Shown one piece after another: positions 141-17,821 of a DNA stretch of 39,625 bases. Origin of the DNA: Candidatus Cloacimonadales bacterium (lineage in GTDB: Bacteria > Cloacimonadota > Cloacimonadia > Cloacimonadales > TCS61); assembly GCA_046482725.1 (NCBI GenBank), contig JAWOEN010000166.1:1-39625 (forward strand). The letters run 5' to 3'. Made by a program: the position numbers and the translations under genes. The first letter of the stretch is position 1; each line of letters starts with the position of its first letter. The notes under the pieces are model-generated. The model was not told the origin of the DNA and did not search any database. It saw only the letters and a program-made list of their open reading frames with translations.

Positions 141-176
141 AAAAAGCCCGGAACTTCACAGTTCCGGGCTTTTTTT
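141..176. terminator. Bidirectional intrinsic terminator ending the glmL-module operon
   Basis: AAAAAGCCCGGAAC-ttcaca-GTTCCGGGCTTTTT perfect stem with A/T tracts on both sides, 25 nt past the stop at 202. Confidence 0.88.
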
Positions 177-201
177 ATATTTCTCAGCAAATGCTGATTA
201 T

Positions 202-1326
202 CTATAATTCGATTACTTCCACATTGGCACGTGGAATTGTAACTTTTTTGCCATTATTCAGTTCGGCTTCCAAGATACGCACCATAGTTTCGGATTCCAC
301 TTTGGTCAATTCTTCGGGCAAACCGGTGATTTTTCCGATCTCGCCAAAATTGGGCTCACGAATCACACGGATAGTAGAGCCGATTTCCAAAGTAGCCATT
401 TTCGCCTCTTCCACTTGCAGCTTTTCACCTTCGAAAGGAATGGGGATAATGATTTCGGGGCGCATCACACCGGCACGGATTTGTGTCATTCCGTGCATCG
501 AAGCTTTTTGACCGTCAAAATCTTTGAGCAATTGGAAGGTCGCATCAGCCATCTTGATCTGACCAAAGCCTTCGGTACAGACGATTGTGACGCCGATATC
601 TTCATGACCGGTAATAGCCACACCAATATCATAACCCAACAGCTCTTTCAAGTCACGGTCATCCACGCCACCGGAGATGATGCCATTCACTCCCATTTCC
701 TGAGACTTCTTGATCACATCTAAGGTAACCATCGAGCCGGTAACGATCAGTTTTCCGCGGCAAGATTCATCGATTTGACTCGCTTTCACCACATCTGAAC
801 CAGTTTTCGCCAGAACTTTGATCTCACCAGTTGTCTCGCCGGCAATACCAAAAATTCCCTGCACATAAGCCGATTTATTTTCGATAACAACGCCTTCTTC
901 TTCGATCACTTCTACTACTATGCCATCGATGAAAGCTTTTACCTGAACCGGAATTCTCGGTTCGCGCAGCAGCATCTGTCCGGTAATTTTGGAAATACTT
1001 TCCACTTCACCCTCGATCGGAGATTTGATCGCAGATTTAAAAAATCCAAAAAAGCCTTTGGTTTGAGCTATCATCTGCCCTTTTTTCAATTCATCACCAG
1101 CTTTCACCTTGATAAATTCATGCACCATACTGGGCTGTACACCCAATTTATTTGCCAGATTAAAAGGTACTACCTTACCTGGTAAGCGTGTTTCAGCTAC
1201 CAAATCTTCAGCTTTTACCTTATCACCTTTTTTTACCAATACATTACCCTTCAAAGGAAGAATTCTGTCTTTTCTTAATACGATACTTTTGGTTACGGTT
1301 AACCCTGCTGAATATGCTTGAGCCAT
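202..1326 (-). CDS. Conserved hypothetical protein (374 aa): barrel-sandwich-hybrid repeats, central alpha/beta domain, C-terminal KOW-like domain
   Basis: Strong GGAGG RBS. BSH half-motifs GNVLVKKGDKVKAEDLVAE, IKVKAGDELKKGQMIAQ, IKSPIEGEVESI and VKAFIDGIVVEV, with no MKM biotin or lipoyl lysine motif. KOW-like IGSTIRVIREPNFGEIGKI. Confidence 0.85.
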   Translation of the reverse strand: MAQAYSAGLTVTKSIVLRKDRILPLKGNVLVKKGDKVKAEDLVAETRLPGKVVPFNLANKLGVQPSMVHEFIKVKAGDELKKGQMIAQTKGFFGFFKSAIKSPIEGEVESISKITGQMLLREPRIPVQVKAFIDGIVVEVIEEEGVVIENKSAYVQGIFGIAGETTGEIKVLAKTGSDVVKASQIDESCRGKLIVTGSMVTLDVIKKSQEMGVNGIISGGVDDRDLKELLGYDIGVAITGHEDIGVTIVCTEGFGQIKMADATFQLLKDFDGQKASMHGMTQIRAGVMRPEIIIPIPFEGEKLQVEEAKMATLEIGSTIRVIREPNFGEIGKITGLPEELTKVESETMVRILEAELNNGKKVTIPRANVEVIEL

Positions 1327-1335
1327 AATTTCCTC

Positions 1336-3198
1336 CTATTTTAATAATTCTTCTGGATATGCTTTGAGCTCTTTCATCCATTTCAATAGTAATGGAACTC
1401 TATCAGAAGCGTCTACGGGTAAGACGAATGGTTGTCTACCGCGGGTATCCAGTACGATGCCCACAACGCCACCGTGCAATTCTGTCTCTAAATCCTGATT
1501 TTTACCAAGGCCCAGATCCAGACCGCGTCCGGGTGACAATTTTGCTTTAGCAGTTTCGCCAACTCCCAGCGGAATCAGGCGCACTTCACCAAAGGGAATA
1601 TCTTCTTCGAAAATCGTGCCGTCAGGCAGCTCGATCTTGGCAGAAAGTGCTTTTTTCCCAGATTTCATCTTACCCACCGGAGCCACACAAGTTCCCAAAT
1701 AGATCAGACAATCTTTTTCGAAAACTTCGGTAGCAGCTCTGGGACTGATCTCGGCCAATACACCCAATTGTGGCATCATGAAAATACTATCCACTGCCAA
1801 ACGAGTAATACCTTCTGGTAAGAAAGCGTTGATCAGCAACATAACTGTCTGATTTCTACGAGGAGCGTGCGATAGTACACCGCCCGAACCAACCAAAAGA
1901 TCCAGAGTCATCATATTCACGATAGAATCACCAGAAGCAGATTGGGCAAAAGCATCGGAAATTTCGCGCTGTTTTTGACCACCCTTCAGGCCAACCGCAA
2001 ATTCTTTATGTTGGATAAAGGCATATCTCAGAGCTTCATTGGCAATAGCCTGCTCCAAAACCAGCTCCTTAAATTTTTGGGGAATCGTAGTCGGACGAAT
2101 CATCTTGTTTTTGATCATATTTCTCAAACCAGACTCATCAATATCAAAAGGTACCCAGCGTAAGATATTATCCAAGCCGGCAGTAGCCAAAACATTGGAG
2201 ATACTGTAGCTCATGCCGAGGTTGGCACTAACTGTACGATTGAAAACTTTGTCTTCGGTAAAGACTGAGAAAACGTCTGTGGTAGCACCACCGATATCCA
2301 CACCCAAAACTTCGATATCATTTTCTCTGGCAATAGTTTGCATGATATTACCCACAGCTGCCGGAGTCGGCATAATGGGAATATTTTTCATCTTGCCATC
2401 GACCGGGCCCATAGTCCAGCTCATCAATTTATTATAGCCGGGCGCTTGTGCCATCACGTGTTCCATGAAAAGATCATGAATTTTGTCACGGGCTGGTCCC
2501 AAATTTTCTACTTCCAAAGTAGGACGTAAATTTTCTGTAATAATCAGGTCGGTTTTTTCTTTCAAAGTCTCTTCGATCACGTCGATCGCTTTCTTATTTC
2601 CGGCATAGATCACCGGCAATTTGTAGCTAGAGCCCAAACGTGGTTTGGGATCTGCCGCACCTACCAACTCAGCCATTTCAGCTACGTGTTTGGTAGTTCC
2701 ACCATCGACTCCACCCGCCATCAAAATCATATCGGGGCGTAAAGCTCTGATGCGCTCAATCTTTTCATAGTTAGCACGTTTATCATTGCTGGCAATCAGA
2801 TCCATCACGATAGCACCAGCTCCCAGAGCTGCTCTTTCTGCACTCTCACCTGTCATTCTGGCTACCACTCCAGTCACCATCATCTGCAATCCACCACCAG
2901 CACTGGAGGTAGAAACATAAGCGTCTATACCATTCTTCTCACCAATAAATAATTTATCACCGTCGGTGAACTTGATAGTAGGATCCTTGTATTTCAGTTG
3001 TGCTAATTCTTGCAACTCGGTAACTGCGTTTACCACGCCTCGCGTCACGTCATTCAGCGGTTTCTCGACCGTTGTAGGCGCCTCTCCACGCACTGTCTGA
3101 CGGTATTCACCATCAACATACTCAATCAAAATAGCTTTGGTTGTAGTACTTCCACAGTCAGTTGCGATAATACGTCTCAAATTTTGAGTCTCTGCCAT
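1336..3198 (-). CDS. glmL: Glutamate mutase L (GlmL/MutL) family ASKHA-fold ATPase, long form (620 aa)
   Basis: Phosphate-1 DCGSTTTKA, SSAGGGL, GGVDGG, YAGN, PTPAAV, phosphate-2 DIGGATTDVFS, RTVSANLGMSYS and adenosine GSGGVL motifs. GGAGG RBS. Confidence 0.85.
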   Translation of the reverse strand: MAETQNLRRIIATDCGSTTTKAILIEYVDGEYRQTVRGEAPTTVEKPLNDVTRGVVNAVTELQELAQLKYKDPTIKFTDGDKLFIGEKNGIDAYVSTSSAGGGLQMMVTGVVARMTGESAERAALGAGAIVMDLIASNDKRANYEKIERIRALRPDMILMAGGVDGGTTKHVAEMAELVGAADPKPRLGSSYKLPVIYAGNKKAIDVIEETLKEKTDLIITENLRPTLEVENLGPARDKIHDLFMEHVMAQAPGYNKLMSWTMGPVDGKMKNIPIMPTPAAVGNIMQTIARENDIEVLGVDIGGATTDVFSVFTEDKVFNRTVSANLGMSYSISNVLATAGLDNILRWVPFDIDESGLRNMIKNKMIRPTTIPQKFKELVLEQAIANEALRYAFIQHKEFAVGLKGGQKQREISDAFAQSASGDSIVNMMTLDLLVGSGGVLSHAPRRNQTVMLLINAFLPEGITRLAVDSIFMMPQLGVLAEISPRAATEVFEKDCLIYLGTCVAPVGKMKSGKKALSAKIELPDGTIFEEDIPFGEVRLIPLGVGETAKAKLSPGRGLDLGLGKNQDLETELHGGVVGIVLDTRGRQPFVLPVDASDRVPLLLKWMKELKAYPEELLK

Positions 3199-3210
3199 TT
3201 TTCCTCCAAT

Positions 3211-3633
3211 TTATTTTTTAGATTTTTTTTTATCTGCTTTCGGTTTGATCCCGAAAAATTTCTTGATCTTGTTATGACGCCGTTTGCGTAAAACTCTTTT
3301 TTCTGCTCGTTCTTGGCTGTAAGATTCATCATCTAGTTCATCGATGCGCTTCACCAGCATCGAGATATATTTGTCATGCTCGAGCAGGGCGGCAAATTCC
3401 TGATATTCGCGGGAATCTACAAACACTTCGGCAAAAGGTGCTAGAAAGTGCATCAATTGGCTGCCGATATTGTGCAAAGGTCGCAAAGACTCGATGGTCA
3501 TGATTGCTGGGGCAGCCATCCGTTTTTCTACAATAAAGCGAGAAATTTTATCGATCAATTTCACAGCTTTTTCCGGAGATATCTCCAAAATTATTTCATT
3601 CAATTTTTTATCCTTCTTATTCAAATTATTCAC
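3211..3633 (-). CDS. Conserved hypothetical protein (140 aa), first gene of the glmL module
   Basis: GTG start; 12-nt gap to glmL. Amphipathic core MAAPAIMTIESLRPLHNIGSQLMHFLAPF and a very basic C-terminal tail. Confidence 0.8.
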   Translation of the reverse strand: MNNLNKKDKKLNEIILEISPEKAVKLIDKISRFIVEKRMAAPAIMTIESLRPLHNIGSQLMHFLAPFAEVFVDSREYQEFAALLEHDKYISMLVKRIDELDDESYSQERAEKRVLRKRRHNKIKKFFGIKPKADKKKSKK

Positions 3634-3651
3634 ATATTTTTAGTTCAGGTA

Positions 3652-3680
3652 AAATTTCTTTATGCCCTTGCGATTGTCAA
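3652..3680 (-). promoter_or_regulatory. Possible sigma70 promoter in the 3' end of comF, driving the glmL module
   Basis: Minus-strand TTGACA-N17-AAATTT (perfect -35, weak -10), 18 nt before the GTG at 3633. Confidence 0.4.
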
Positions 3681-4307
3681 GACAATGATTTGGCTAACCC
3701 CGTTATTTTTCAAAACATTACTAATGGTATTGGTAGTGGCTCCCGTAGTAAAAACATCATCAACCAACAAGACTGTTTTACCGACCAGTTTTTGGCGATA
3801 TTTGCTGCCAAAAGCCTGGGCCACGTTTTGCTGTCGCTCCTGACGGTTCAATTGAGTCTGGGTTTGGGTAAAGCGTTTGCGGGCAAGTGCTTGGGGAAAA
3901 TGTTGATAACCGCATTTCTTGGCAATCGTTTGGGAGAGAATTTCAGCTTGATTGAAGCCGCGAAAACGTTTTTTGACACGATGTAGCGGCACCGGCACCA
4001 CCAAATCAATCTGGGGCAGATCAGCTTGAGCTTGCAAAAAATTGGCCGCCTCAGTTGCCAGAAATTTTCCCAGACTTCGCATCTCATTATATTTGAACTC
4101 ATGAATTAGCTGCTGCACCAAAGGCGTGAAATCGAAAACTGCCAACGACCGCTCGAAACTGAAATCGCCAGGCTCCGTTGTCTGCTCTCTCCAAACTAAT
4201 TTTTGGACACAAGCAGCGCAGACCACCTCTGCTCCCGAGATACTGCTACCGCAGCCCGGACAGATTCCGGGAAAAATCAAGTTCAAAAAAGTATCGATAA
4301 TTTTCAT
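3660..4307 (-). CDS. comF: ComF family protein (zinc ribbon plus phosphoribosyltransferase fold)
   Basis: CPGC...CAAC, VPVPLH, RGFNQA, R-x-x-NV and LLVDDVFTTGAT motifs. Confidence 0.93.
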   Translation of the reverse strand: MKIIDTFLNLIFPGICPGCGSSISGAEVVCAACVQKLVWREQTTEPGDFSFERSLAVFDFTPLVQQLIHEFKYNEMRSLGKFLATEAANFLQAQADLPQIDLVVPVPLHRVKKRFRGFNQAEILSQTIAKKCGYQHFPQALARKRFTQTQTQLNRQERQQNVAQAFGSKYRQKLVGKTVLLVDDVFTTGATTNTISNVLKNNGVSQIIVLTIARA

Positions 4308-4358: not shown

Positions 4359-4880
4359 CTAAACTTCTTGCCCCGCTTGCAGGCGCATGCCCACTTTGTA
4401 CTTTTCCATTTTCTCCGGTGGAAGCTGCAGGCGGCAAATTGCACCCAGAGGTGCTACTCCGATCAAGCGACCGACGATCTTGCACTCGGGCTCGAAAATA
4501 TAAACTTTTCCCTGCAAGTTTTGGCTGCTGAAATCTTCTCCCGCCCAGCGGATTTCTGCCGGTTCAAAGATTCTTTTTCTGATTACCAAAGAGTCAGCAT
4601 CGCAGGCAATAATTTTGCCATTAATCGGAAAAACCAAAGTTGGTTCAGCCTCCAAATAGCGCCAGCGCCGGTTTACTCGAAACAGCATCAGCACTAAAAG
4701 GTAGAGAGCCAAGCCCAACATTGCCAGAAAGTTAGCACCTTGAAATGGGATATTGGAGCTGATAATAACCGAAAGCAACACCAGCGCAATCGGTAGGGCA
4801 GCAAATTTGAACTTGGTCTTTTGGATAGCGGATATCACCGCAATGGGATTATAGACTTCCAGCTCTTGATATTTTTTCAT
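4359..4880 (-). CDS. Membrane-anchored phosphatidylserine-decarboxylase-like protein lacking the catalytic serine
   Basis: Start moved to ATG 4880 (AGGTGGAG RBS). Two TM helices, then LFR..VFPINGKI, GRLIGVAPLGAICRLQLP and KVGMRLQAGQEV, which parallel short-type PSD motifs. Confidence 0.55.
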   Translation of the reverse strand: MKKYQELEVYNPIAVISAIQKTKFKFAALPIALVLLSVIISSNIPFQGANFLAMLGLALYLLVLMLFRVNRRWRYLEAEPTLVFPINGKIIACDADSLVIRKRIFEPAEIRWAGEDFSSQNLQGKVYIFEPECKIVGRLIGVAPLGAICRLQLPPEKMEKYKVGMRLQAGQEV

Positions 4881-4917
4881 CTCTCCACCTTTGTAGTTTT
4901 TTTTCCGTCTTATTTTG

Positions 4918-6210
4918 CTAGATTCCAACCCGTTCAAAGATGAAATCTACATGTTTTAGATAGCGTTCAAAAGAAAATATTTGATTGATCTCCGCAGCAC
5001 TGAGATATTTTCTGATCTCTTCATCAGCCAGCAAAAGTTCTTGGAAGGGCTGTTTTGTTTCCCAACATTTCATAGCGTTTCTCTGTACCAAAGCATAGGA
5101 ATCTTCACGAGAGATCCCGGTTTCGGCCAGCTTCAGCAGAAAGACCTGAGAGAAAACCAGTCCGTTGGTCAGGTTGATATTTTTCATCATATTATCGGGA
5201 TAGACCAACAAATTTTCGATCAGTGAGATCATTTTATTCAGCATATAATTCATCAAAATAGTCGTATCAGGCAGGATAATTCTTTCCACGGAAGAGTGGC
5301 TGATATCACGCTCATGCCACAAAGCATTATTTTCCAGAGCAGCCATAGCGTTGCTGCGAATTAGGCGTGCCATTCCGCTCATCTGCTCGGTAGCGATGGG
5401 ATTGCGTTTGTGTGGCATAGCAGAAGAACCTTTCTGGCCTTTGGAAAAATTTTCCTCAGCTTCCAAAACTTCCGTGCGCTGCAGGTGGCGAATCTCGACT
5501 GAGATCTTCTCGATGGTAGAAGCAGCCACAGCCAAAGTGTTCATATACTCGGCAATGCGATCACGCTGGATAACCTGAGTGGCAATATTTACCGGCTGCA
5601 GATCCAGATAAGTGCAGGCTATCTCTTCGACCTGAGGCGAAAGATGAGCATAATTGCCCACCGCACCCGAAATTTGGCCTACTGAGACTATATCGATCGC
5701 AGCTTTCAATCTTCTGATATTTCGCTGCATCTCGTCGTACCAGAGGGCAAATTTTAGACCGAAAGTCGTGGGCTCGGCATGTATACCATGCGAGCGTCCA
5801 ATGCAAAGTGTGTGTTTGTGTTCTTGGGCTCGGATGCGCAGCACTTCCGAGAGCTTTTCCAGATCGCGCAAGATCAAAATGCCGGCTTGCTTCAATTGCA
5901 GAGAAGTAGCTGTGTCCAACACATCTGAAGAGGTCATTCCGTAGTGAATAAAGCGTGATGATGGTCCTACAAATTCTGAGACACTGGTAAGAAAGGCAAT
6001 CACATCATGTTTGGTTACCTGCTCGATTTCGTCGATACGCTCGATATCAAAATCTGCCTTTTCCACAATATTTTCCAAGTCTTCATCCGGGATCATTCCC
6101 AGCTGGTTCATAGCACGGCAAGCTGCTATTTCCACATCCAACATACATTGAAACCTGTTGGGCAGATCCCAAATTTTCTCCATCTCTTCTCGCGAATATC
6201 GCTTGATCAT
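4918..6210 (-). CDS. purB: Adenylosuccinate lyase
   Basis: TKHDVIAF, HYGMTSSD, GRSHGIHAEPTTFG and the signature GSSAMPHKRNP. Confidence 0.98.
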   Translation of the reverse strand: MIKRYSREEMEKIWDLPNRFQCMLDVEIAACRAMNQLGMIPDEDLENIVEKADFDIERIDEIEQVTKHDVIAFLTSVSEFVGPSSRFIHYGMTSSDVLDTATSLQLKQAGILILRDLEKLSEVLRIRAQEHKHTLCIGRSHGIHAEPTTFGLKFALWYDEMQRNIRRLKAAIDIVSVGQISGAVGNYAHLSPQVEEIACTYLDLQPVNIATQVIQRDRIAEYMNTLAVAASTIEKISVEIRHLQRTEVLEAEENFSKGQKGSSAMPHKRNPIATEQMSGMARLIRSNAMAALENNALWHERDISHSSVERIILPDTTILMNYMLNKMISLIENLLVYPDNMMKNINLTNGLVFSQVFLLKLAETGISREDSYALVQRNAMKCWETKQPFQELLLADEEIRKYLSAAEINQIFSFERYLKHVDFIFERVGI

Positions 6211-6237: not shown

Positions 6238-6828
6238 TTAGTTATATTTTATTTCATCCACACTTACTTTCAGCACCAAATCTTGCTGCTGCCAAAGCTT
6301 GATATATTGCAGATCCTGATTGAGATCATATTCCAATCTTACCCGAAACTTGGGAGTGACAATTTCTTCTATCTGCATCGCTTCATTCCAAAAGATTTCC
6401 AGATTATCCAAACTCAATTGCAGCTCTGAGCAGATGGTCGAAGAGTACTTATCTAGCAAATCCGGTGAAAATATCTGCTGTAAATCAGAGCTGGTGAGCG
6501 GCACTGCCTGCGTTTTACCCATAAACTGAAATTCTACTTCCTGCCCTATTTCCAGACTGGCCAAAGGTGCTGCCTTCATGCCAAAAACTCCACCCTCTAC
6601 CAAGCTGGCAGAAAATTTCTCCGGCGTATTTTTTAGCTGCAGATTTTTTCGGAAAGTGAAATTTTTATAATTTATCTCTGCGATGCCGGAGAGCGTAAAA
6701 TTCTGATATTTATTGATATTTTCGCGCAATAATTCTGCTCGCTGGCGCGGTGGCGGAAACAAAGAACAGCCCGCCAGCACCAGCAAAATCAGGCAACTAC
6801 TAATTATTAATTTTTTGTTTATTGGCAT
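6238..6828 (-). CDS. Lipoprotein, possibly of LolB/LolA-like fold
   Basis: Lipobox LAG|C after a basic and hydrophobic signal; beta-rich mature part; overlaps the 3' end of lgt by 29 nt. Confidence 0.7.
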   Translation of the reverse strand: MPINKKLIISSCLILLVLAGCSLFPPPRQRAELLRENINKYQNFTLSGIAEINYKNFTFRKNLQLKNTPEKFSASLVEGGVFGMKAAPLASLEIGQEVEFQFMGKTQAVPLTSSDLQQIFSPDLLDKYSSTICSELQLSLDNLEIFWNEAMQIEEIVTPKFRVRLEYDLNQDLQYIKLWQQQDLVLKVSVDEIKYN

Positions 6829-9634: not shown

Positions 9635-12283
9635 TTACTTCAGTAAAATCATCTTCTTCACTTGATTGTAATCGCTAGTCTGTAAACGGTAAAAATAGAT
9701 TCCTGAGCTCTGCTCAGCAGCATCCCAACCGTAGCTATGCTTTCCTGCTTCACAAGCTAAAAACTCTTTCTGCACGATTTGACCGCGAGCGTTATAAATT
9801 GTCAATTCAGCGATTTCAGCTGTTTGTAGTGAAAACCTGATCGTCGTACTAGCTGCGCGTTGGCTCTTTGTGGATGTGAAAGGATTGGGATAATTGCCGA
9901 TCAATTCGGTAACTAATGTCAGATCTTGCGAACTGGATTGAGCTAGGGTCAGCTCGATTGATATCTCTGTTATCTGCTCTGTCTCGATCAAAATATCGGT
10001 AACTGTCTCTGTCACGTAGCCTTCCAAACTGGCAATCAATTGATAGCTACCAACTTCCAGCTCCAGTGAAAAATCTCCCAGCTCATCAGGCGATATATTT
10101 TGTCCGGCAATCTCAATATTGACAGCGCTGACCTCAGCATCTCCGCCCTCTAAGCTTACTGTTCCCACCAAAGATCCATAATAGATAGTGGCGAACAGTT
10201 CCAGATCGAGGTTGGTAATCTGGTCAGCCAAAATCTCGATCTCTTCGATCACTACAGGATCATAACCTGCCAATTCTGCTGAGAGCTGATAAACACCGGT
10301 TTCCAGCTCAAGCTCAAAGCTACCGTCAGCGGCAGGATAATAGACCTCATCAGCTATTGTCAATGCTACCTCTTCCACATTTCCTTCGCCACCACTGAGA
10401 TTAACTGTGCCGCTGAGAGTTCCATAGCTGGCATCGTAGTGTGTGTAAACCAATTGATAGCCGCCATAAGCGACCAGTCTACCTTGATATGATAAAATAT
10501 TTTTGAGGCGAGTGGGAATGAAAGCAGGTTGCTCAATATCGATCATCTCCCAGCTCACTCCATTATCTTGGGAAATGATAATAGCATTTTCCACACCCTG
10601 ATTGCCAGCATTGTTGGCATAGCCCACAGCCACAAAATCTCCGTCCAGATTGGTGCTAATTCCCAGCAATTGATCTGTACCATCATAATCGGCTTGCTGC
10701 CAATCTGCCAAATCTGTTCCACCATTGGCAGTGTAATAAATATTGCCTTCAATAGTAGTAATCACTCCGACTTGATCCGAGCTGAAAGCTACTCCATAAA
10801 GATTTTCCGTACCTAGATTGAAGCTGCTCCACTCATCGTCCGCCGACTTGATAACGACCTCGCCGCCTTCTCCTACAAAGAAGATATCGCCATTTTCTTT
10901 GGCGGTGGCACCATAAAGTGCATAAGATGCACCCAGACTTTGCCAATTGGCGCCCTGATCTTCTGTATAATGAATATTGCCGGCACCCATCACATAAGCT
11001 TCTTGGTCATCAATCTTAAGAATATGAGAAATCTCACCCATTGCCAGGTTTATCTCTTCCCAGCTACTTCCGGCGTCAGTTGTGCGATACAATCTGCCAT
11101 CTTCTTCACTCGCCACAACTCCCACTTCTGTATCAAAGAAGCAAACTGCAAAAAAATCTTCCGCTTCGGTAGTAACATCAAGGCGCTGATAGCTAGCACC
11201 TGCATCTTCTGTTCTGATCAAAGTAGATCTGCCACCTGCCAAAAACCAATTTTCTTCATCCAAAATATCGCCGCCATAGAGATAGTAGGCCGGCACTGTT
11301 TTCTCGACCCAGGCTGCAGCTGCATAATCAGATTTTGCTACAGTACCATACCAGCCGCAGATAATAACCTGACCATCTTCGGTAAAGGCTACTCCATCAA
11401 AATAGCTGGAAAAATTGTTCTCTACAAAGCTGGCAGTTTCCCAGTTATCAGTAGTTTTCAGCAGCTCACCATACCAACCCACTGCAAAACCCAGATCGCC
11501 GTTCATGGCAATATTTCTAAGGTGATGACTAGCTCCGGTACCATTGATTTGCTGAAAAGTAGCAGCTCCATCTTCCGAAACAGCGATAAAACCATCGCCA
11601 CCGGAAACAATAACTTTGCCATTATTGCTAACCACCTCATAGAGATGAGGATCATCCATAAAACTAGCTCCGCTATCAAACCAATTTGCTCCAAAGTCGA
11701 TAGTTTTTTGAACCCAAGTAAGATCACTGCTGCCATTGTTTCCCACCAGATAGCCGGTTCCGTCAGCAGCCATTTCCACTGCATAGATCGTAGCACTCAC
11801 TCCCGATTCCTGAGCTTGCCAGTTAGCACCAAAATCTTCTGAATAAGCTACTTTACCGGCACTGCCCACAGCCCAGATCTTGCCATCTGCCAAATAGGCT
11901 ACATCTTCCAGATGGTCATTACCAAAATAATCTGCAATAAAATCTATAGTTTGCCAGCTTTCTCCGTCAGAGGTGATAAAAGCCAAGCCATTTTCGCTAG
12001 CCACTATTCCGTTGTTTTCATCGGCAAAAGCGATGCCATTGACATCTTTGTAATAATTTGTCGCTGCATTGAAAGCAGGGCTCTCGACAAAAGAGAAAGT
12101 CTCGCCATTATCTACAGATTTGGCAAAAGCTCCATTCATCCCACCTACCCAAATCTGCTGACCTACCTGTTCGATATCATATAAATGTACGGGAAAATCT
12201 GTCTGCCGATTTAGTTCCCAAGCTGCTAAGCCTGAAACGAGGAAAGACAAAATTATAAAAATAACCAAAATTCTTCTACTCAT
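9635..12283 (-). CDS. Secreted YCF48/BNR-repeat beta-propeller protein with two carboxypeptidase-regulatory-like domains and a C-terminal FlgD/T9SS type A sorting-like domain
   Basis: Signal peptide; many (S/T)xDxGxxW Asp-box repeats; two ~78-aa beta-sandwich repeats; C-terminus GNYPNPF..IYNARGQ..WDA..SSGIYFYRL..KKMILLK. Confidence 0.88.
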   Translation of the reverse strand: MSRRILVIFIILSFLVSGLAAWELNRQTDFPVHLYDIEQVGQQIWVGGMNGAFAKSVDNGETFSFVESPAFNAATNYYKDVNGIAFADENNGIVASENGLAFITSDGESWQTIDFIADYFGNDHLEDVAYLADGKIWAVGSAGKVAYSEDFGANWQAQESGVSATIYAVEMAADGTGYLVGNNGSSDLTWVQKTIDFGANWFDSGASFMDDPHLYEVVSNNGKVIVSGGDGFIAVSEDGAATFQQINGTGASHHLRNIAMNGDLGFAVGWYGELLKTTDNWETASFVENNFSSYFDGVAFTEDGQVIICGWYGTVAKSDYAAAAWVEKTVPAYYLYGGDILDEENWFLAGGRSTLIRTEDAGASYQRLDVTTEAEDFFAVCFFDTEVGVVASEEDGRLYRTTDAGSSWEEINLAMGEISHILKIDDQEAYVMGAGNIHYTEDQGANWQSLGASYALYGATAKENGDIFFVGEGGEVVIKSADDEWSSFNLGTENLYGVAFSSDQVGVITTIEGNIYYTANGGTDLADWQQADYDGTDQLLGISTNLDGDFVAVGYANNAGNQGVENAIIISQDNGVSWEMIDIEQPAFIPTRLKNILSYQGRLVAYGGYQLVYTHYDASYGTLSGTVNLSGGEGNVEEVALTIADEVYYPAADGSFELELETGVYQLSAELAGYDPVVIEEIEILADQITNLDLELFATIYYGSLVGTVSLEGGDAEVSAVNIEIAGQNISPDELGDFSLELEVGSYQLIASLEGYVTETVTDILIETEQITEISIELTLAQSSSQDLTLVTELIGNYPNPFTSTKSQRAASTTIRFSLQTAEIAELTIYNARGQIVQKEFLACEAGKHSYGWDAAEQSSGIYFYRLQTSDYNQVKKMILLK
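9951..10426 (-). repeat. Tandem pair of diverged ~78-aa beta-sandwich domains
   Basis: YGTLSGTVNLSGG..PAADGSFELELETGVYQLSAELAGY versus YGSLVGTVSLEGG..PDELGDFSLELEVGSYQLIASLEGY. Confidence 0.8.
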
Positions 12284-12594: not shown

Positions 12595-14151
12595 ATGAAA
12601 GTTTCTGAAAAAATCGAACTTTTAAGGCAAAACGAAGCCAAGGTAAAAGAGATGGGCGGTGCAAAACGCATCGAAAAGCATCATGATAAAGGCAAGTTTA
12701 CAGCTCGCGAAAGATTGGATATGCTGTTTGATCAAGGCACATTCCGCGAGATTGATATGTTTGTGAAACATAGATCCACCAATTTTGGAATGCAGCAGGT
12801 AGATATTCCCTCCGATGGAGTAGTCACCGGGCACGGTCTGGTGCATGGACGTCCTGTCTTTGCCTACTCCCAAGACTTTACTTCTCGCGGTGGTTCGCTG
12901 GGTGAGAAACATGCCGGCAAAATCGTCAAGGTGATGGATCTGGCAATGAAAGCGGGAGTTCCCATCGTAGGCATCAATGATTCCGGTGGCGCCCGAGTAG
13001 AAGAAGGCATCGACGCGCTGAAAGGTTACGGCGATATCTTCTTCCGCAATTCCCGAGCTTCCGGTGTGATTCCCCAGATCAGTGCGATTATGGGACCTTG
13101 TGCCGGCGGAGCTGTCTACTCACCAGCCATGACAGATTTTATCTTTATGGTGAAAAAAACCAGTTTCATGTTTATCACCGGACCCAGCGTGATCAAGACT
13201 GTTACCGGCGAAGAGACCACCTTCGAAGAGCTGGGCGGAGCGATGGCGCACAATACCAAAAGCGGCAATGCACATTTTGCCTGTGAAGATGAAGAGCACG
13301 CGATCGATGAGATCAAGACCCTGCTCTCCTATCTGCCCAACAACAATATGCAAGAGCCTCCGCATCAAAATACCGGCGATGATCCAACCAGATTATGTGA
13401 AAAATTGGATAGCCTCGTCCCCGATAGCGCCAAGATTCCTTATGATATGAAAGAGATCATTCATGAAGTTTTGGATAATGGGGATTTTTTTGAACCGCAC
13501 GAATATTATGCCGAAAATATCATCATCGGTTTGGGCCGTCTCAATGGGCGCACAGTTGGTATCGTAGCCAATCAGCCCATGGTTTTGGCTGGTTGCCTCG
13601 ATATAAATGCTTCGGATAAAGCAGCTCGCTTCATTCGTTTCTGCGACGCCTTCAATATTCCGCTGATCACTTTTGTAGATGTTCCCGGCTATCTGCCCGG
13701 CACACATCAGGAATGGGAAGGCATCATCCGTCACGGCGCCAAATTGCTCTGGAGCTATTCGGAAGTAACAGTTCCCAAGATGACTGTCGTGGTCAGAAAA
13801 AATTATGGCGGCTCCTATATCGCCATGAATTCGATGCATTTGGGTGCTGATATGATCTTTGCCTGGCCTTCAGCTGAGATTGCAGTGATGGGCGCTCAGG
13901 GCGCGGTAAATATTGTGGGAACCTATCGCAAAGCGATCGCCGCTGCTGAAGATCAGGAAGCGATGCGTCAAAGCAAGATCGATGAATATGAGACAGCTTT
14001 CAACACTCCCTATATCGCTGCTGAGCGCGGCTATATCGATGCAATAATCCAACCTTCGGAAACTCGGATGCGCCTGATAGATGCCATGGAAGTGATGTGT
14101 ACTAAAAATGAAGCACTGCCTCCCAAAAAACATGGCAATATCCCACAATAA
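12595..14151 (+). CDS. Acyl-CoA carboxyltransferase (methylmalonyl-CoA carboxyltransferase 12S / PccB / MmdA family)
   Basis: TARERL, DGVVTGHG, DSGGARVEEG, GPCAGGAVYSPAMTDF, RFCDAFNIP, DVPGYLPG and KKHGNIP motifs. AGGAG RBS. Confidence 0.95.
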   Translation: MKVSEKIELLRQNEAKVKEMGGAKRIEKHHDKGKFTARERLDMLFDQGTFREIDMFVKHRSTNFGMQQVDIPSDGVVTGHGLVHGRPVFAYSQDFTSRGGSLGEKHAGKIVKVMDLAMKAGVPIVGINDSGGARVEEGIDALKGYGDIFFRNSRASGVIPQISAIMGPCAGGAVYSPAMTDFIFMVKKTSFMFITGPSVIKTVTGEETTFEELGGAMAHNTKSGNAHFACEDEEHAIDEIKTLLSYLPNNNMQEPPHQNTGDDPTRLCEKLDSLVPDSAKIPYDMKEIIHEVLDNGDFFEPHEYYAENIIIGLGRLNGRTVGIVANQPMVLAGCLDINASDKAARFIRFCDAFNIPLITFVDVPGYLPGTHQEWEGIIRHGAKLLWSYSEVTVPKMTVVVRKNYGGSYIAMNSMHLGADMIFAWPSAEIAVMGAQGAVNIVGTYRKAIAAAEDQEAMRQSKIDEYETAFNTPYIAAERGYIDAIIQPSETRMRLIDAMEVMCTKNEALPPKKHGNIPQ

Positions 14152-14159
14152 GGATTCTT

Positions 14160-14342
14160 ATGAAAAAGCGAGATAAAAAGCTCCAAGCTGCTATTATGGC
14201 AGCCTTGCAATATATTCAGGAAGAAGAATCCGGCCAAAAGAAACAGATAAATCTCTGGGCTCGCAATGGTCGCGAGCGTATGATGGCAAACAATCGTTTT
14301 GTCCAGAAGCGCGGTAGAATTTTGCGTCCGGGCAGAGTTTAA
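14160..14342 (+). CDS. Small accessory subunit (acyl-CoA carboxylase epsilon / OadG-MmdD C-terminal-like, 60 aa)
   Basis: AGGA RBS; ATG 8 nt after the upstream stop. AAIMAAL helix and W-x3-GR-x2-MM motif; no TM anchor. Confidence 0.7.
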   Translation: MKKRDKKLQAAIMAALQYIQEEESGQKKQINLWARNGRERMMANNRFVQKRGRILRPGRV

Positions 14343-14431
14343 TTAAAAAAAATAATAAATCTAGATAACCGGCAAAATTCGAATATTTATAGATGACGAA
14401 TATTTGCCAACCTGATTGGAGGAAAGAGAAG

Positions 14432-16339
14432 ATGAGTTTAGATAAACACGGCGTATTAGAAATGACCAAGATGAATTATGATCCGCATCGTCCGGCTGCG
14501 AAAAATCCGATAAAGATTCAGGATGTAAGCTTGCGCGATGGGCATCAGAGCATTTTTGCCACTCGCGGGCGCACCGAAGATATGATCCCGGTTGCCAAAA
14601 TGATGGATGAAGTCGGTTTTCATTCCATGGAAGTCTGGGGCGGTGCTACCTTTGACACGATGCATCGCTATCTGGGCGAAGATCCTTGGGAAAGAATTCG
14701 TACTTTGAAAAAACATATCACCAAAACCCCCTTTTCCATGCTCTTGCGCGGGCAAAATGTAGTGGGCTATCGCAATTATGCTGATGATGTGGTAGAAGCA
14801 TTTGTGCAGCGAGCTTGCGATAATGGCATCGATATTTTCCGCTGCTTTGATGCGCTAAATGATTTTAGAAATTTCGAAACTGCAGCCAAGATTGTGAAGA
14901 AAAACGGCAAACATTTTCAGGGAACTATCTGCTATTCGCTCACCGAGATGCGGATGGGTGGAGATGTTTATAATATCGATTATTATCTGAACAAAGCCAA
15001 AGAGCTGGAAGAATTTGGAGTAGATTCTATCTGCATCAAAGATATGGCAGGTCTGGTGGCACCTTATGATGTTTACAACCTGATAGTTGCCCTAAAGCAG
15101 CAGACCGCTATTCCTATTCATCTGCACACACATTTCACTTCCGGCATGGCCGATCTGGCTCTGCTAAAAGCGGTGGAAGCTGGCGTAGATGTGATCGATA
15201 CTTGCATGGCACCCTATGCTTATCGCACTTCGCATCCGGCTGTGGAACCACTAGTAATTACTCTGATGGGAACAAATCGCGATAGCGGATTTGATATTGA
15301 AAAGCTGGCCGCGATCGGCAAAGAGATGGAAAAATATACTCCCAAATATATGCACTATCTCAATAATACCAAGCTTTCGATTATCGATACAAATGTGATC
15401 TTGCATCAAACACCGGGTGGTATGTTATCCAATTTGGTTAACCAATTGCGGGCGATGGATTCTTTGGATAAATTGGATGAAGTATTTGAAACTCTGCCTC
15501 AAGTTCGCAAAGATTTGGGTATGGTTCCTCTGGTTACACCTACCAGTCAAATTGTGGGTATTCAGACGGTGAACAATGTACTTTTTGATGAAAAACCTGG
15601 TGAATATGCCAAGATTACCGAGCAGGTAAAAGATCTTTGTTATGGGCTATATGGCAAAACAACTCGCCCCATCGACCCCGATGTCCGAGCCAAAGCGCTG
15701 AAGAATTATCCGCGCGGAGAAGAGCCGATCTCTTGTCGCCCCGGCGATCTGCTGAAGCCGGAATTGACCAAGATCCAAGCTGAGGTCAAAGGTTTGGCTC
15801 AAGATATCGACGATGAAATATTGTGTGCTCTCTATCCGGTTACAGGCAAGCGTTTCCTGAAATGGAAATATGGTTTGGCAGAAGTTCCGGACGATGTAAA
15901 GCCCAAGACGATGGAGCAAGTGGAGGCAGAGCAAGATCTGGTTGCCAAAGCTTTGGGCGGAAAGTTATCGGAAAAATCCGAGCGCGAAAAGCCGGCCAAT
16001 CTGCGTCAATTTGATATCTATGTGGATGGCGAATATTTCAATGTGGAAGTAGCAGACCCCAATGCTACAGCAACTCCGGCTCGCAAAAAGCGCGAGAAAT
16101 CAGCGGCTGAAGCAGCACCGGGCAGCGTGCTGGCACCGATCCCCGGTATGATAGCCGAATACAAAGTTGCCATTGGCGATACAGTAACCCAGGGCGATAC
16201 TATTTTGGTCTTGGAAGCGATGAAAATGTTTAATAATCTGGAAGCGCCGACTTCCGGAGTGGTAAAAGAGATCAAACACGATGTGGGCGATTCGGTAGCC
16301 AAGGGTGAGCTCTTGATGGTTATCGAGCCAACCGAATAG
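14432..16339 (+). CDS. Pyruvate/oxaloacetate carboxyltransferase (transcarboxylase 5S / PycB / OadA family) fused to a biotin carboxyl carrier domain
   Basis: Start moved to ATG 14432 (GGAGG). RDGHQS, EVWGGATFD, MLLRGQN, IKDMAG, HTH and PLVTPTSQIVG motifs; biotinylation motif EAMKM. Confidence 0.93.
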   Translation: MSLDKHGVLEMTKMNYDPHRPAAKNPIKIQDVSLRDGHQSIFATRGRTEDMIPVAKMMDEVGFHSMEVWGGATFDTMHRYLGEDPWERIRTLKKHITKTPFSMLLRGQNVVGYRNYADDVVEAFVQRACDNGIDIFRCFDALNDFRNFETAAKIVKKNGKHFQGTICYSLTEMRMGGDVYNIDYYLNKAKELEEFGVDSICIKDMAGLVAPYDVYNLIVALKQQTAIPIHLHTHFTSGMADLALLKAVEAGVDVIDTCMAPYAYRTSHPAVEPLVITLMGTNRDSGFDIEKLAAIGKEMEKYTPKYMHYLNNTKLSIIDTNVILHQTPGGMLSNLVNQLRAMDSLDKLDEVFETLPQVRKDLGMVPLVTPTSQIVGIQTVNNVLFDEKPGEYAKITEQVKDLCYGLYGKTTRPIDPDVRAKALKNYPRGEEPISCRPGDLLKPELTKIQAEVKGLAQDIDDEILCALYPVTGKRFLKWKYGLAEVPDDVKPKTMEQVEAEQDLVAKALGGKLSEKSEREKPANLRQFDIYVDGEYFNVEVADPNATATPARKKREKSAAEAAPGSVLAPIPGMIAEYKVAIGDTVTQGDTILVLEAMKMFNNLEAPTSGVVKEIKHDVGDSVAKGELLMVIEPTE

Positions 16340-16356
16340 AGCTTTTTTTTTTAACC

Positions 16357-16391
16357 AAAGCACAGTTTGGCCTTGCCCAAGCTGTGCTTTT
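16357..16391 (+). terminator. Intrinsic terminator of the carboxyltransferase operon
   Basis: AAAGCACAGTTTGG-ccttgc-CCAAGCTGTGCTTTT. Confidence 0.78.
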
Positions 16392-16504
16392 CTATCTCAT
16401 TTTTCTTTACAAACCAACTATTTCTGCAGAATTATCTTGGTCCCATCAATAGTCGGATTGACTAGTTTCGCTGGCATTACAAAAAAATTGGATAGGTAAT
16501 AATT

Positions 16505-17821
16505 ATGATAAGATTTTCATTTGCAACACTTGATTCAGCTTATTTAGCGCAGCGCTTCATCGAAAAAGGCGAGACAACTTTCTTTGCTGTCGATCTCTAC
16601 GACCTGGCAATAATTCTCGTCGGTTTACTAATCACGGTGGCAGTGATTTTACCGCGCCTGATTTCGGATCGCAAAATCTTAACAGCACCTCTACTCTACC
16701 TTCTGACCGGAGCTTTAGTATTTTTGCTACCCCAAGCGCCAGCACTTCCCGATCTGGTGGAAAATCCTTGGTGGCCCAAGCGCATAACTGAGCTGGGCGT
16801 GATCGTTGCACTTACATCTGCCGGGCTCAAATTAAATCGCCCTTTCGCTCGTTATAGCTGGCGAATTAGTTGGCGCTTGCTGGCTTTTACCATGCCACTA
16901 ACCATTATCGCCTCTGCTGTGCTAGGCTGGTGGGCTCTTGGCTTTGTTCCGGCTACTGCCTTGCTCTTGGGTGCTGTGATCGCGCCAACAGATCCGGTTT
17001 TAGCAGCTGATGTACAAACCAGCCGCCCCGGCAAACCAGATACTTCTCAAACCAAATTGGCTTTGACAACCGAGGCCGGCCTTAATGATGGATTAGCCTT
17101 TCCCTTCACCAATCTGGCAATTGCCGTAATGCTGGTAGGGACATCTCCTGCCAATTGGTTGAGCGGTTGGCTGGCAATAGATTTTTTCTACAAGATCATC
17201 GTGGGTGCTTTGGTGGGATTTGTTAGCGGCTGGACTCTGGCACGACTACTTTTTGGCTTTTCTGCGACCCGCCGTCTGGCGAAAACTATGACCGGCATCA
17301 CAACTCTCAGCCTTACTCTCTTACCATATGGGATAGCAGAGCTGTGTGCAAGCTATGGTTTTATTGCTGTATTCGCTGCAGCCTGCACCTTTCGCCAATT
17401 TGAATGTGATCATGAATATCAGATTACTCTGCATGATTTTTCCGAAGAGATCGAACGGGTGATGGTGGCAATTTTAATGTTTTTTATTGGCGCTTATGCA
17501 GTTAATGTTTTATCAGAATATCTGACACTAAACTTATTCTTGGTGGCTTTAGCTATTATCTTTCTAATTCGCCCCCTGAGCGGAAGCTTGGGCTTGGTCG
17601 GCTCACAACTATCTCGCAAAAAACGTCTAGCTGTCTCTTTTTTGGGCATTCGAGGAATCGGCTCAATCTACTATTTGGCTTATGCCATCTACCACGTCAA
17701 ATTTCCCGATGCAATGCAGTTGTGGACATTGATAATAACCACAATTATAGTTTCCGTGTTTGTACACGGTATCTTGGCAAATCCCATAATGAGCTGGGCG
17801 CTGAAAGAAGATAAACAATGA
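16505..17821 (+). CDS. Cation:proton antiporter, CPA1/NhaP family
   Basis: APTDPVLA, TEAGLNDGLAFPF and FLGIRGIGSIYY motifs; multiple TM helices. Confidence 0.92.
   Translation: MIRFSFATLDSAYLAQRFIEKGETTFFAVDLYDLAIILVGLLITVAVILPRLISDRKILTAPLLYLLTGALVFLLPQAPALPDLVENPWWPKRITELGVIVALTSAGLKLNRPFARYSWRISWRLLAFTMPLTIIASAVLGWWALGFVPATALLLGAVIAPTDPVLAADVQTSRPGKPDTSQTKLALTTEAGLNDGLAFPFTNLAIAVMLVGTSPANWLSGWLAIDFFYKIIVGALVGFVSGWTLARLLFGFSATRRLAKTMTGITTLSLTLLPYGIAELCASYGFIAVFAAACTFRQFECDHEYQITLHDFSEEIERVMVAILMFFIGAYAVNVLSEYLTLNLFLVALAIIFLIRPLSGSLGLVGSQLSRKKRLAVSFLGIRGIGSIYYLAYAIYHVKFPDAMQLWTLIITTIIVSVFVHGILANPIMSWALKEDKQ

Follow-up and report, generated by a model that had tools for sequence, protein, structure and literature searches.

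Three genes on the minus strand of a 39,625-nucleotide contig of a Candidatus Cloacimonadales bacterium (JAWOEN010000166.1 of assembly GCA_046482725.1; this whole stretch is hereafter called the window) encode a small protein, a long protein of the GlmL/MutL family with the nucleotide motifs of ASKHA ATPases, and a third, multi-domain protein. In our estimate the chances are evenly balanced that these three genes represent the cytoplasmic, ATP-using part of an undescribed, conserved, multi-protein inner-membrane system. This reading is carried by gene fusion, by operon linkage, and by joint presence and loss across genomes, and from its gene content the complete system appears to comprise seven to eight genes, three of them soluble and four of them membrane genes, often joined by a further small membrane protein. 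An earlier interpretation, made from the letters of the window without database searches (the sequence-only reading), had proposed the same genes as a candidate for a self-contained three-component system. The three genes, in the order in which they would be read, are as follows.

3211–3633, minus strand: open reading frame (ORF) of 140 amino acids (aa), as called with a GTG start
1336–3198, minus strand: 620-aa ORF of the long MutL/GlmL-like ASKHA ATPase, ATG at 3198
202–1326, minus strand: 374-aa ORF of the partner protein, ATG at 1326

The three encoded proteins

The 620-aa protein matches the Pfam family MutL (PF13941) over the entire profile (412.4 bits; residues 10–497, profile positions 1–450 of 450), and about 120 C-terminal residues lie beyond the match. 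The nucleotide motifs DxGSTTTK, DIGGATTD, and GSGG are invariant across 40 orthologues, and binding and hydrolysis of ATP by the protein would be expected from these intact motifs; the sequence-only reading had described both the motifs and the extended C-terminus correctly. The protein stays below the cut-offs of three more specific models: GlmL (NF040745; 209.7 bits against 475), Or-4 (NF040744; 192.6 against 600), and glmL_fam (TIGR01319; 152.5 against 204.05). The hydantoinase/oxoprolinase A family (PF01968) reaches 24.0 bits against a cut-off of 22.9 through residues 3–39 only, with no stretch passing on its own, and sequence searches of solved structures with the ATPase returned no match.

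Relatives of the ATPase were sought in a set limited to a single genome for each species; 556 were obtained, and the best 80 were kept as loci. These best 80 are 60–85% identical, and their record titles carry many phylum labels. Mean column identity in the long ATPase is 64% over 40 sequences. A tree of 41 rows was built from the window, 22 of the 80 long-type loci (58 were left out), three fused orthologues, nine fused paralogs, and six canonical sequences, and in it a branch of 4.4 with a support of 100/100 separates the 35 long or fused rows from the six canonical GlmL/Or-4 rows. Because the protein falls below the NCBIfam cut-offs and lies in a clade of its own, its assignment to a separate long GlmL-like subfamily is supported at the sequence level, as the sequence-only reading had proposed in advance of any phylogeny. 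The end branches of canonical GlmL measure 1.65–3.5, versus 0.07–0.56 in the long clade, and such short branches, together with the conservation of the ATPase and its partner, form a pattern that would be expected of a core catalytic subunit rather than of an accessory chaperone.

The third protein was modelled from 41 orthologues with a predicted local distance difference test (pLDDT) score of 87.5, and the following parts are predicted.

Residues 51–123: barrel-sandwich hybrid region (predicted model and PF13375)
Residues about 152–299: swivelling beta/beta/alpha-like domain (predicted model)
Residues about 310–374: KOW/SH3-like barrel (predicted model; Z 8.8, root-mean-square deviation (rmsd) 1.3)

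PF13375 matches with 31.4 bits (cut-off 25.6), and PF05896 reaches 24.2 bits against a cut-off of 25. In fold searches, residues 51–123 found NqrA (Z 7.5) and RnfC (Z 7.2) with 64–65 residues aligned, and residues 152–299 found Enzyme I of the phosphotransferase system (PTS; Z 9.2, rmsd 2.9, 108 residues), rifampin phosphotransferase (Z 8.4), aconitase X (8.3), and RraA (8.2); these Z values are near a level often reached by unrelated models, so they describe folds and not functions. Foldseek returned only weak whole-chain matches with low TM-scores, to Thermotoga maritima NusG (E 7e-6) and to NqrA (E 1.4e-3), and the sequence search of solved structures gave a single match, mannose-6-phosphate reductase, at E 0.01. 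Histidine is absent from the invariant and near-invariant residues listed for the alignment of 41 partner sequences, and H241 of the window protein corresponds to serine in the consensus.

The tie between this protein and the ATPase is seen most directly in fusions. PF13941 is present in all but one of 98 relatives that are longer than the 374-aa protein, and about 50 fused relatives match it at 44–51% identity over 99–100% of its length; those with a name belong to Neomarinimicrobiota or Planctomycetota, with 45–51% identity. The window's own genome encodes a fused paralog of 1050 aa on contig C84 (C84:11401–14553, or L002:49–3201, minus strand), which consists of an N-terminal zinc-ribbon-like region, a MutL domain 39% identical to the 620-aa protein, and a C-terminal partner homologue 30% identical to the 374-aa protein (E 2e-31). 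In the related fused forms P0180, P0186, and P0198, an XRE-type helix-turn-helix stands at the N-terminus instead, according to precomputed Pfam annotation, which hints at a DNA-binding or regulatory variant. Where the genes are separate, the partner gene lies within 1.3 kb downstream of the ATPase gene on the same strand in 63 of the 80 loci, and in 57 of the 67 that leave at least 2.2 kb of room. In a sample of 101 Planctomycetota genomes, in which the long ATPase was called at E < 1e-100, the two proteins occur in exactly the same 26 genomes with equal copy numbers; mean column identity of the partner is 63%. Because of the fusions, the downstream adjacency, and the identical phyletic pattern, the 374-aa protein is, on genomic grounds, an obligate partner of the ATPase.

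The 140-aa protein is small and helical, and matches no family in Pfam or NCBIfam; its hydrophobic core (VPAI..ES.KPL..GSQ) is conserved, and its C-terminal tail is basic. Since its homologues align from about residue 13 onwards, the true start may be an in-frame TTG at 3603 behind AAGGA, which would give a protein of 130 aa. At E ≤ 1e-3 its family comprises 866 representative clusters, of which 88 remain at E ≤ 1e-10, and profile–profile tests against the other small or inserted proteins of the loci found no relation (probabilities ≤3%). The small gene stands directly upstream of the ATPase gene in 43 of the 80 loci and anywhere in the locus in 52, and under the labels Marinimicrobia, Lentisphaeria, or Fidelibacterota its place is behind the partner gene instead. 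The small protein is probably linked to the ATPase, to judge from the conservation of its family and from its position in the loci. The proposal of the sequence-only reading that the ATPase works with both flanking proteins, whose linkage is indeed conserved across neighbourhoods, stands for the 374-aa protein and becomes a probability for the small one.

The linked membrane module and its possible role

Clustering of the neighbours in the 80 loci revealed four further conserved genes that follow the partner gene on the same strand.

DUF6754 (PF20539), about 400 aa: protein of the membrane module
Polytopic protein, about 215 aa: membrane module, no Pfam or NCBIfam family
Protein with a transmembrane (TM) helix at each end, about 280 aa: membrane module, no Pfam or NCBIfam family
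Second polytopic protein, about 210–270 aa: membrane module, no Pfam or NCBIfam family

DUF6754 is found in 34 of the 80 loci and all four membrane genes in 28, and where at least 5.5 kb are visible on both sides, DUF6754 is found in 23 of 43 loci. The loci with linked membrane genes span at least 12 submitter phylum labels, and in 22 loci a protein of about 150 aa with two TM helices is encoded ahead of the small gene. Ignavibacteria-, Zixibacteria-, and Calditrichota-type loci carry one or two four-gene modules divergent from the ATPase gene, and a 267-aa secreted or anchored protein is encoded between ATPase and partner. The claim that the three genes form a self-contained system has to be given up in this form, as the same genes stand in one operon with four membrane genes under many phylum labels. 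Owing to this operon linkage elsewhere, and to the presence of the membrane genes on other contigs of the window's genome, the likely client of the ATPase is the membrane module and not a soluble enzyme.

Two complete four-gene sets are encoded in the window's genome, at C68:6154–9479 and at C200:15221–20396, the latter with a DUF6754 protein of 975 aa. Two other Cloacimonadota genomes have a long DUF6754 gene and the three other membrane genes immediately behind the fused paralog, and the short-type module stands alone, as on C68, in all seven further Cloacimonadota genomes checked. A SecB-like ORF (C68:4924–5310, plus strand; PF02556, 30.2 bits) lies just upstream of the DUF6754 module on C68, but it was rejected as a member of the module, as no such gene was found beside the module in any of the seven other Cloacimonadota loci.

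The membrane proteins are far less conserved than the soluble ones, with mean column identities of 36–39% versus 64% for the ATPase and 63% for the partner. The DUF6754 model (pLDDT 80) comprises a signal peptide, an outward-facing Fn3 domain (Z 10–11), a TM helix, an alpha/beta domain that would be cytoplasmic by the positive-inside rule, and C-terminal TM helices; the results of both fold searches with it were filled by Fn3 matches. The domain between the two TM helices of the 280-aa protein is predicted to face the periplasm. TMD0_ABC matches 10 of the 22 members of one membrane family weakly (best E 0.0066), and profile–profile tests among the membrane families found no relation (probabilities ≤3%). 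Sequence searches of solved structures gave no match for the two polytopic families, no meaningful match for the bitopic one, and only the Fn3 domain for DUF6754.

The soluble and membrane genes also share their presence and loss across genomes. In the Planctomycetota sample, DUF6754 occurs in 27 of the 101 genomes, and all but two of these are carriers of the ATPase (25 of 26 carriers). ATPase and DUF6754 are found in the same 36 of 41 Cloacimonadota genomes, and both are missing from the same five (G107, G110, G113, G122, and G128), which are single-contig genomes of 1.5–1.6 Mb from one genus. This genus is a natural loss lineage, from which the purpose of the system could be learned. In the phylum to which locus L045 belongs (G146 and G151–G250), all 101 genomes have DUF6754 and 99 have the ATPase. 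In genomes with dispersed genes, such as the Poribacteria-labelled ones, the parts are still encoded elsewhere in the chromosome, with DUF6754 found in four of five genomes in each of two sets and the partner in all five of the one set searched.

In the reading that we favour, the long MutL-like ASKHA protein would bind and hydrolyse ATP, the 374-aa barrel-sandwich/swivel/KOW protein would serve as its fixed partner, forming one polypeptide with it in other lineages, and the small helical protein would act as an accessory or adaptor. The three would dock on the four-protein membrane module composed of DUF6754, two polytopic proteins, and one two-TM protein. In the window's genome, the module for the three genes would be the one encoded on C68, and the fused ATPase–partner protein of C84 together with the module of C200 would make up a paralogous second system. 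ATP-driven movements of the ATPase–partner pair would be passed on to the membrane module and there perform work at or across the cytoplasmic membrane; we infer this direction of coupling, and the output could be transport, translocation, or envelope-directed mechanical work, with transport or translocation as the leading guess. A bolder version, in which ATPase and partner are the motor of an unrecognised class of inner-membrane machine and would constitute the first ASKHA-powered membrane transport or translocation system, is, in our view, rather less likely than not.

Several observations weigh against the proposed membrane system. The soluble and membrane genes are unlinked in Cloacimonadota, including the window, and in Poribacteria-labelled loci. 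Gene numbers do not always agree: genomes of the L045 phylum usually hold one ATPase versus two to six DUF6754 copies (mostly four to five), three ATPases stand against two DUF6754 genes in G028, G052, and G088, DUF6754 occurs without the ATPase in G055 and G058, and the reverse is true of G004 and G149. The small protein is found in none of the seven Ignavibacteria-labelled loci and in only one of nine Zixibacteria loci. Apart from the weak TMD0_ABC signal, no known transporter or secretion family is recognised in the membrane proteins, and we know of no membrane machine driven by an ASKHA protein. Physical contact between the ATPase–partner pair and the membrane module is a conjecture from gene linkage and co-occurrence, and the co-occurrence counts overstate independence, as related genomes share genes. 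The copy numbers in the L045 phylum suggest a single soluble module shared by several membrane modules that differ in their outward domains.

The best placed of the alternatives, which we nevertheless consider unlikely, is an assembly or repair chaperone that would apply the logic of a GlmL-like reactivase to the DUF6754 complex, inserting, assembling, or resetting it rather than powering it. A passage of PMC4682846 calls MutL/GlmL a chaperone for the reactivation of glutamate mutase, which lends this alternative a precedent. The genetic coupling to the membrane module speaks for it just as it does for the proposed membrane system, and the excess of modules over ATPases in the L045 phylum would fit a shared helper. 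High conservation and short branches, set against the fast-evolving canonical GlmL, would be unusual for an accessory factor, and a strict stoichiometric fusion to a multi-domain partner is, to our knowledge, without example among reactivases.

An ATP-driven activation or remodelling complex of the three proteins alone, acting on a soluble client other than a mutase, is what the sequence-only reading had envisaged, and we now regard it as improbable. The genes do stand alone and are ended by a terminator in the window and in 12 other Cloacimonadota-labelled loci, and their three-gene order is conserved; against this are the single operon with four membrane genes under at least 12 phylum labels, the presence and loss shared with DUF6754, and the paralogous fused form that directly precedes membrane genes within Cloacimonadota itself.

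It is quite improbable, likewise, that the ATPase forms a membrane-anchored actin-like scaffold, that is, an ASKHA polymer or static platform at the module that would serve the envelope, cell shape, or division, with ATP controlling its assembly. The ATPase does have an ASKHA fold, the extracytoplasmic Fn3 domain of the membrane partner would suit such a role, and the identity of about 60–66% across phyla is typical of cytoskeletal and chaperone ASKHA proteins. The nearest sequence relatives are nevertheless GlmL and hydantoinase-type proteins, not MreB, FtsA, or ParM, polymerisation would be conjectural, and in the bacterial actins known to us nothing corresponds to the C-terminal extension or to the fused partner.

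The weakest alternative, exceedingly improbable in our view, is a reactivase that would act in trans on a B12-dependent mutase encoded elsewhere in the genome (methylmalonyl-CoA mutase (MCM) on C39 or the lysine 5,6-aminomutase KamDE on C213). Membership in the Pfam MutL family and the presence of both enzymes in the genome favour it, and the low scores against the GlmL, Or-4, and glmL_fam models, the separate clade, and the genomic distributions below stand against it. The window's genome is 98.7% complete, no GlmE (PF06368) was found in it, and the window contains no B12-binding domain, in agreement with the sequence-only reading, which had seen neither a mutase subunit nor a B12-binding motif in the unit or the window. 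The genome has four matches to PF02310: MCM on C39, KamD/KamE on C213, a B12-binding protein on C84, beside a histidine-kinase-type ATPase and with the MutL paralog about 13 kb away, and, on C1, a B12 radical-SAM protein. The only two MutL-family genes of the genome, on C107 and C84, are beside neither B12-binding genes nor mutases. Among the canonical genes taken for comparison from a plasmid collection, each of the five glmL genes fetched lies between glmS and glmE, and the Or-4-type gene, from one locus, follows oraS–oraE.

The Planctomycetota sample gives the same picture. None of the 26 carriers of the long ATPase has GlmE or the alpha subunit of lysine/ornithine aminomutase; these occur in two and one of the 101 genomes, respectively, all three being non-carriers. 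MCM-family genes are found in 72 of the 101 genomes but in only 14 of the 26 carriers, and the other 12 have no match to any of the three mutase families searched. An internal control is provided by G044, in which a weak MutL match (E 3e-29), a true GlmL-like one, adjoins the GlmE of that genome and is clearly distinct from the long type. The absence of a tie between the long ATPase and B12 mutases is supported by these genome surveys, and a canonical B12 role is close to refuted. Mutases do exist elsewhere in the window's genome; the 12 carriers devoid of all three families searched show that such co-occurrence is not constant.

These results bear on annotation, since thousands of genomes label the long ATPase 'glutamate mutase L', which implies a B12-dependent glutamate fermentation that those organisms lack. 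The evidence points instead to a conserved system of seven to eight genes with no characterised component, found under many phylum labels from Cloacimonadota and Ignavibacteria-type lineages to Planctomycetota and near-universal in the L045 phylum, whose soluble subunits are conserved on a par with core housekeeping machines. No component has a solved relative by sequence other than the Fn3 domain of DUF6754, the ESM Atlas returned only clusters named 'hypothetical protein' and contains no model, and no description of the long GlmL subfamily or of DUF6754 was found in the literature, subscription papers and supplementary files lying outside the search. The coupling to the membrane, if true, would be a new way of energising a membrane complex, and it would offer DUF6754 and three membrane families that lack any name a concrete function open to testing.

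The gene unit and its surroundings

The three genes are separated by 12 nt (140-aa and 620-aa genes) and 9 nt (620-aa and 374-aa genes), and the following features accompany them.

3207–3203, minus strand: ribosome-binding site GGAGG for the ATPase gene, with 4 nt between it and the ATG at 3198
1336–1332, minus strand: ribosome-binding site GGAGG for the partner gene, with 5 nt between it and the ATG at 1326, overlapping the ATPase stop codon
141–176, minus strand: intrinsic terminator hairpin (about 141–174) with T-run, closing the unit, from folding
3660–4307, minus strand: ComF-type phosphoribosyltransferase gene, ending 26 nt upstream of the 140-aa gene

The terminator hairpin folds with −31.3 kcal/mol (z-score −7.1), and none of 200 shuffled sequences was as stable. 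The tight packing, the two ribosome-binding sites, and the terminator had all been noted in the sequence-only reading and agree with these coordinates and folding results, but the promoter that it had placed at 3652–3680 did not hold up: a true TTGACA is present at 3680–3675, its −10 partner, read by eye, matches at only two of six positions, and the number of promoter-like sites in the region (12, compared with 8.1 ± 2.7 in shuffled sequences) is not above chance. Since the comF-like gene lies only 26 nt upstream, a scan of the region found no terminator-like site between it and the 140-aa ORF, and it is a conserved neighbour, the unit may not start a transcript of its own. In 12 of 14 Cloacimonadota-type loci the comF-like gene stands immediately upstream, and elsewhere a single distant copy is found, in L044; it is a possible co-transcribed neighbour, and outside Cloacimonadota it is no part of the system.

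Metatranscriptome contigs from four runs of three studies cover parts of each of the three genes with at least 95% identity, and four records span the junction between the ATPase and partner genes; as contigs from RNA libraries can hold DNA or derive from close relatives, this is only a hint of expression. Nothing can be read from the portions that no such contig covers. An Rfam search of the window gave no match.

Two further neighbourhoods recur among the 80 loci. In about 14–19 loci, mostly Eisenbacteria-labelled or unlabelled, the genes gcvT, gcvH, and gcvP immediately precede the system and share its strand; among these loci are L021–L023, L047, L051, L053, L055, L056, L058, and L074, where they are upstream of the small gene. 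This adjacency to glycine-cleavage genes may be lineage synteny, and is treated as such here, with a metabolic link as the alternative. In Ignavibacteria-, Zixibacteria-, and Calditrichota-type loci (L024, L027, L034, L035, L041, L043, L052, L072, and L082), a TolQ/ExbB/MotA-like gene follows the partner gene at about 0.3–2.5 kb, mostly about 0.5 kb.

Elsewhere in the window, four regions were recorded.

12595–17821, plus strand: in a row, a carboxyltransferase (PF01039), a biotinyl-domain carboxylase subunit of the OadA/PYC type, and a Na+/H+ exchanger
9635–12283, minus strand: BNR/Sortilin-repeat protein of 882 aa that also has a carboxypeptidase-regulatory-like domain and, at the C-terminus, a Por secretion-system sorting tail
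4359–4937, minus strand: 192-aa ORF with hydrophobic segments, no Pfam family
6238–6828, minus strand: 196-aa ORF with a lipoprotein-like N-terminus, no Pfam family

The first of these looks like a biotin-dependent decarboxylase or transcarboxylase cluster, and the 882-aa protein is likely cargo of a type IX secretion system.

Comparison with known systems

The closest characterised relatives are GlmL/MutL and Or-4/OraF, with which the 620-aa protein shares the PF13941 family and the ASKHA nucleotide motifs; in 10 records of the plasmid collection, it is 26.5–29.8% identical to annotated GlmL and to unannotated relatives. It differs from them in being about 160 aa longer, with a C-terminal extension, and in its genomic setting, for the canonical genes lie beside glmS/glmE or oraS/oraE, whereas the long-type gene does not and is paired or fused with the gene of a barrel-sandwich protein and linked to membrane genes.

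The partner resembles RnfC and NqrA in its N-terminal barrel-sandwich hybrid domain, as seen in PF13375 and in the structural match, and it too would be a soluble protein seated on a membrane module. The likeness does not extend further: the full-length models fail (TIGR01945, 19.4 against 245.95 bits; TIGR01936, 15.3 against 321.05 bits), Pfam shows no iron–sulfur or NADH-binding domain in the partner, and the linked membrane proteins have no Rnf or Nqr match in Pfam. Residues 152–299 resemble in fold the phosphoenolpyruvate-utilising swivel domain of PTS Enzyme I and rifampin phosphotransferase, but no counterpart of its phospho-accepting histidine is among the invariant and near-invariant residues listed for the 41 partner sequences.

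We know of no bacterial membrane machine that has a GlmL-type ASKHA protein as its motor, and the ABC ATPases bear no relationship in sequence or fold to the long ATPase. Transport by the long-ATPase system would be a role assigned by analogy. In its overall architecture, the system may nevertheless be likened to the ATPases of membrane modules, such as those of ABC systems and the Hsp70-type motors at translocons, in which a conserved soluble ATPase is coupled to less conserved membrane subunits, and the likeness extends to the L045 phylum, in which one ATPase accompanies several membrane modules.

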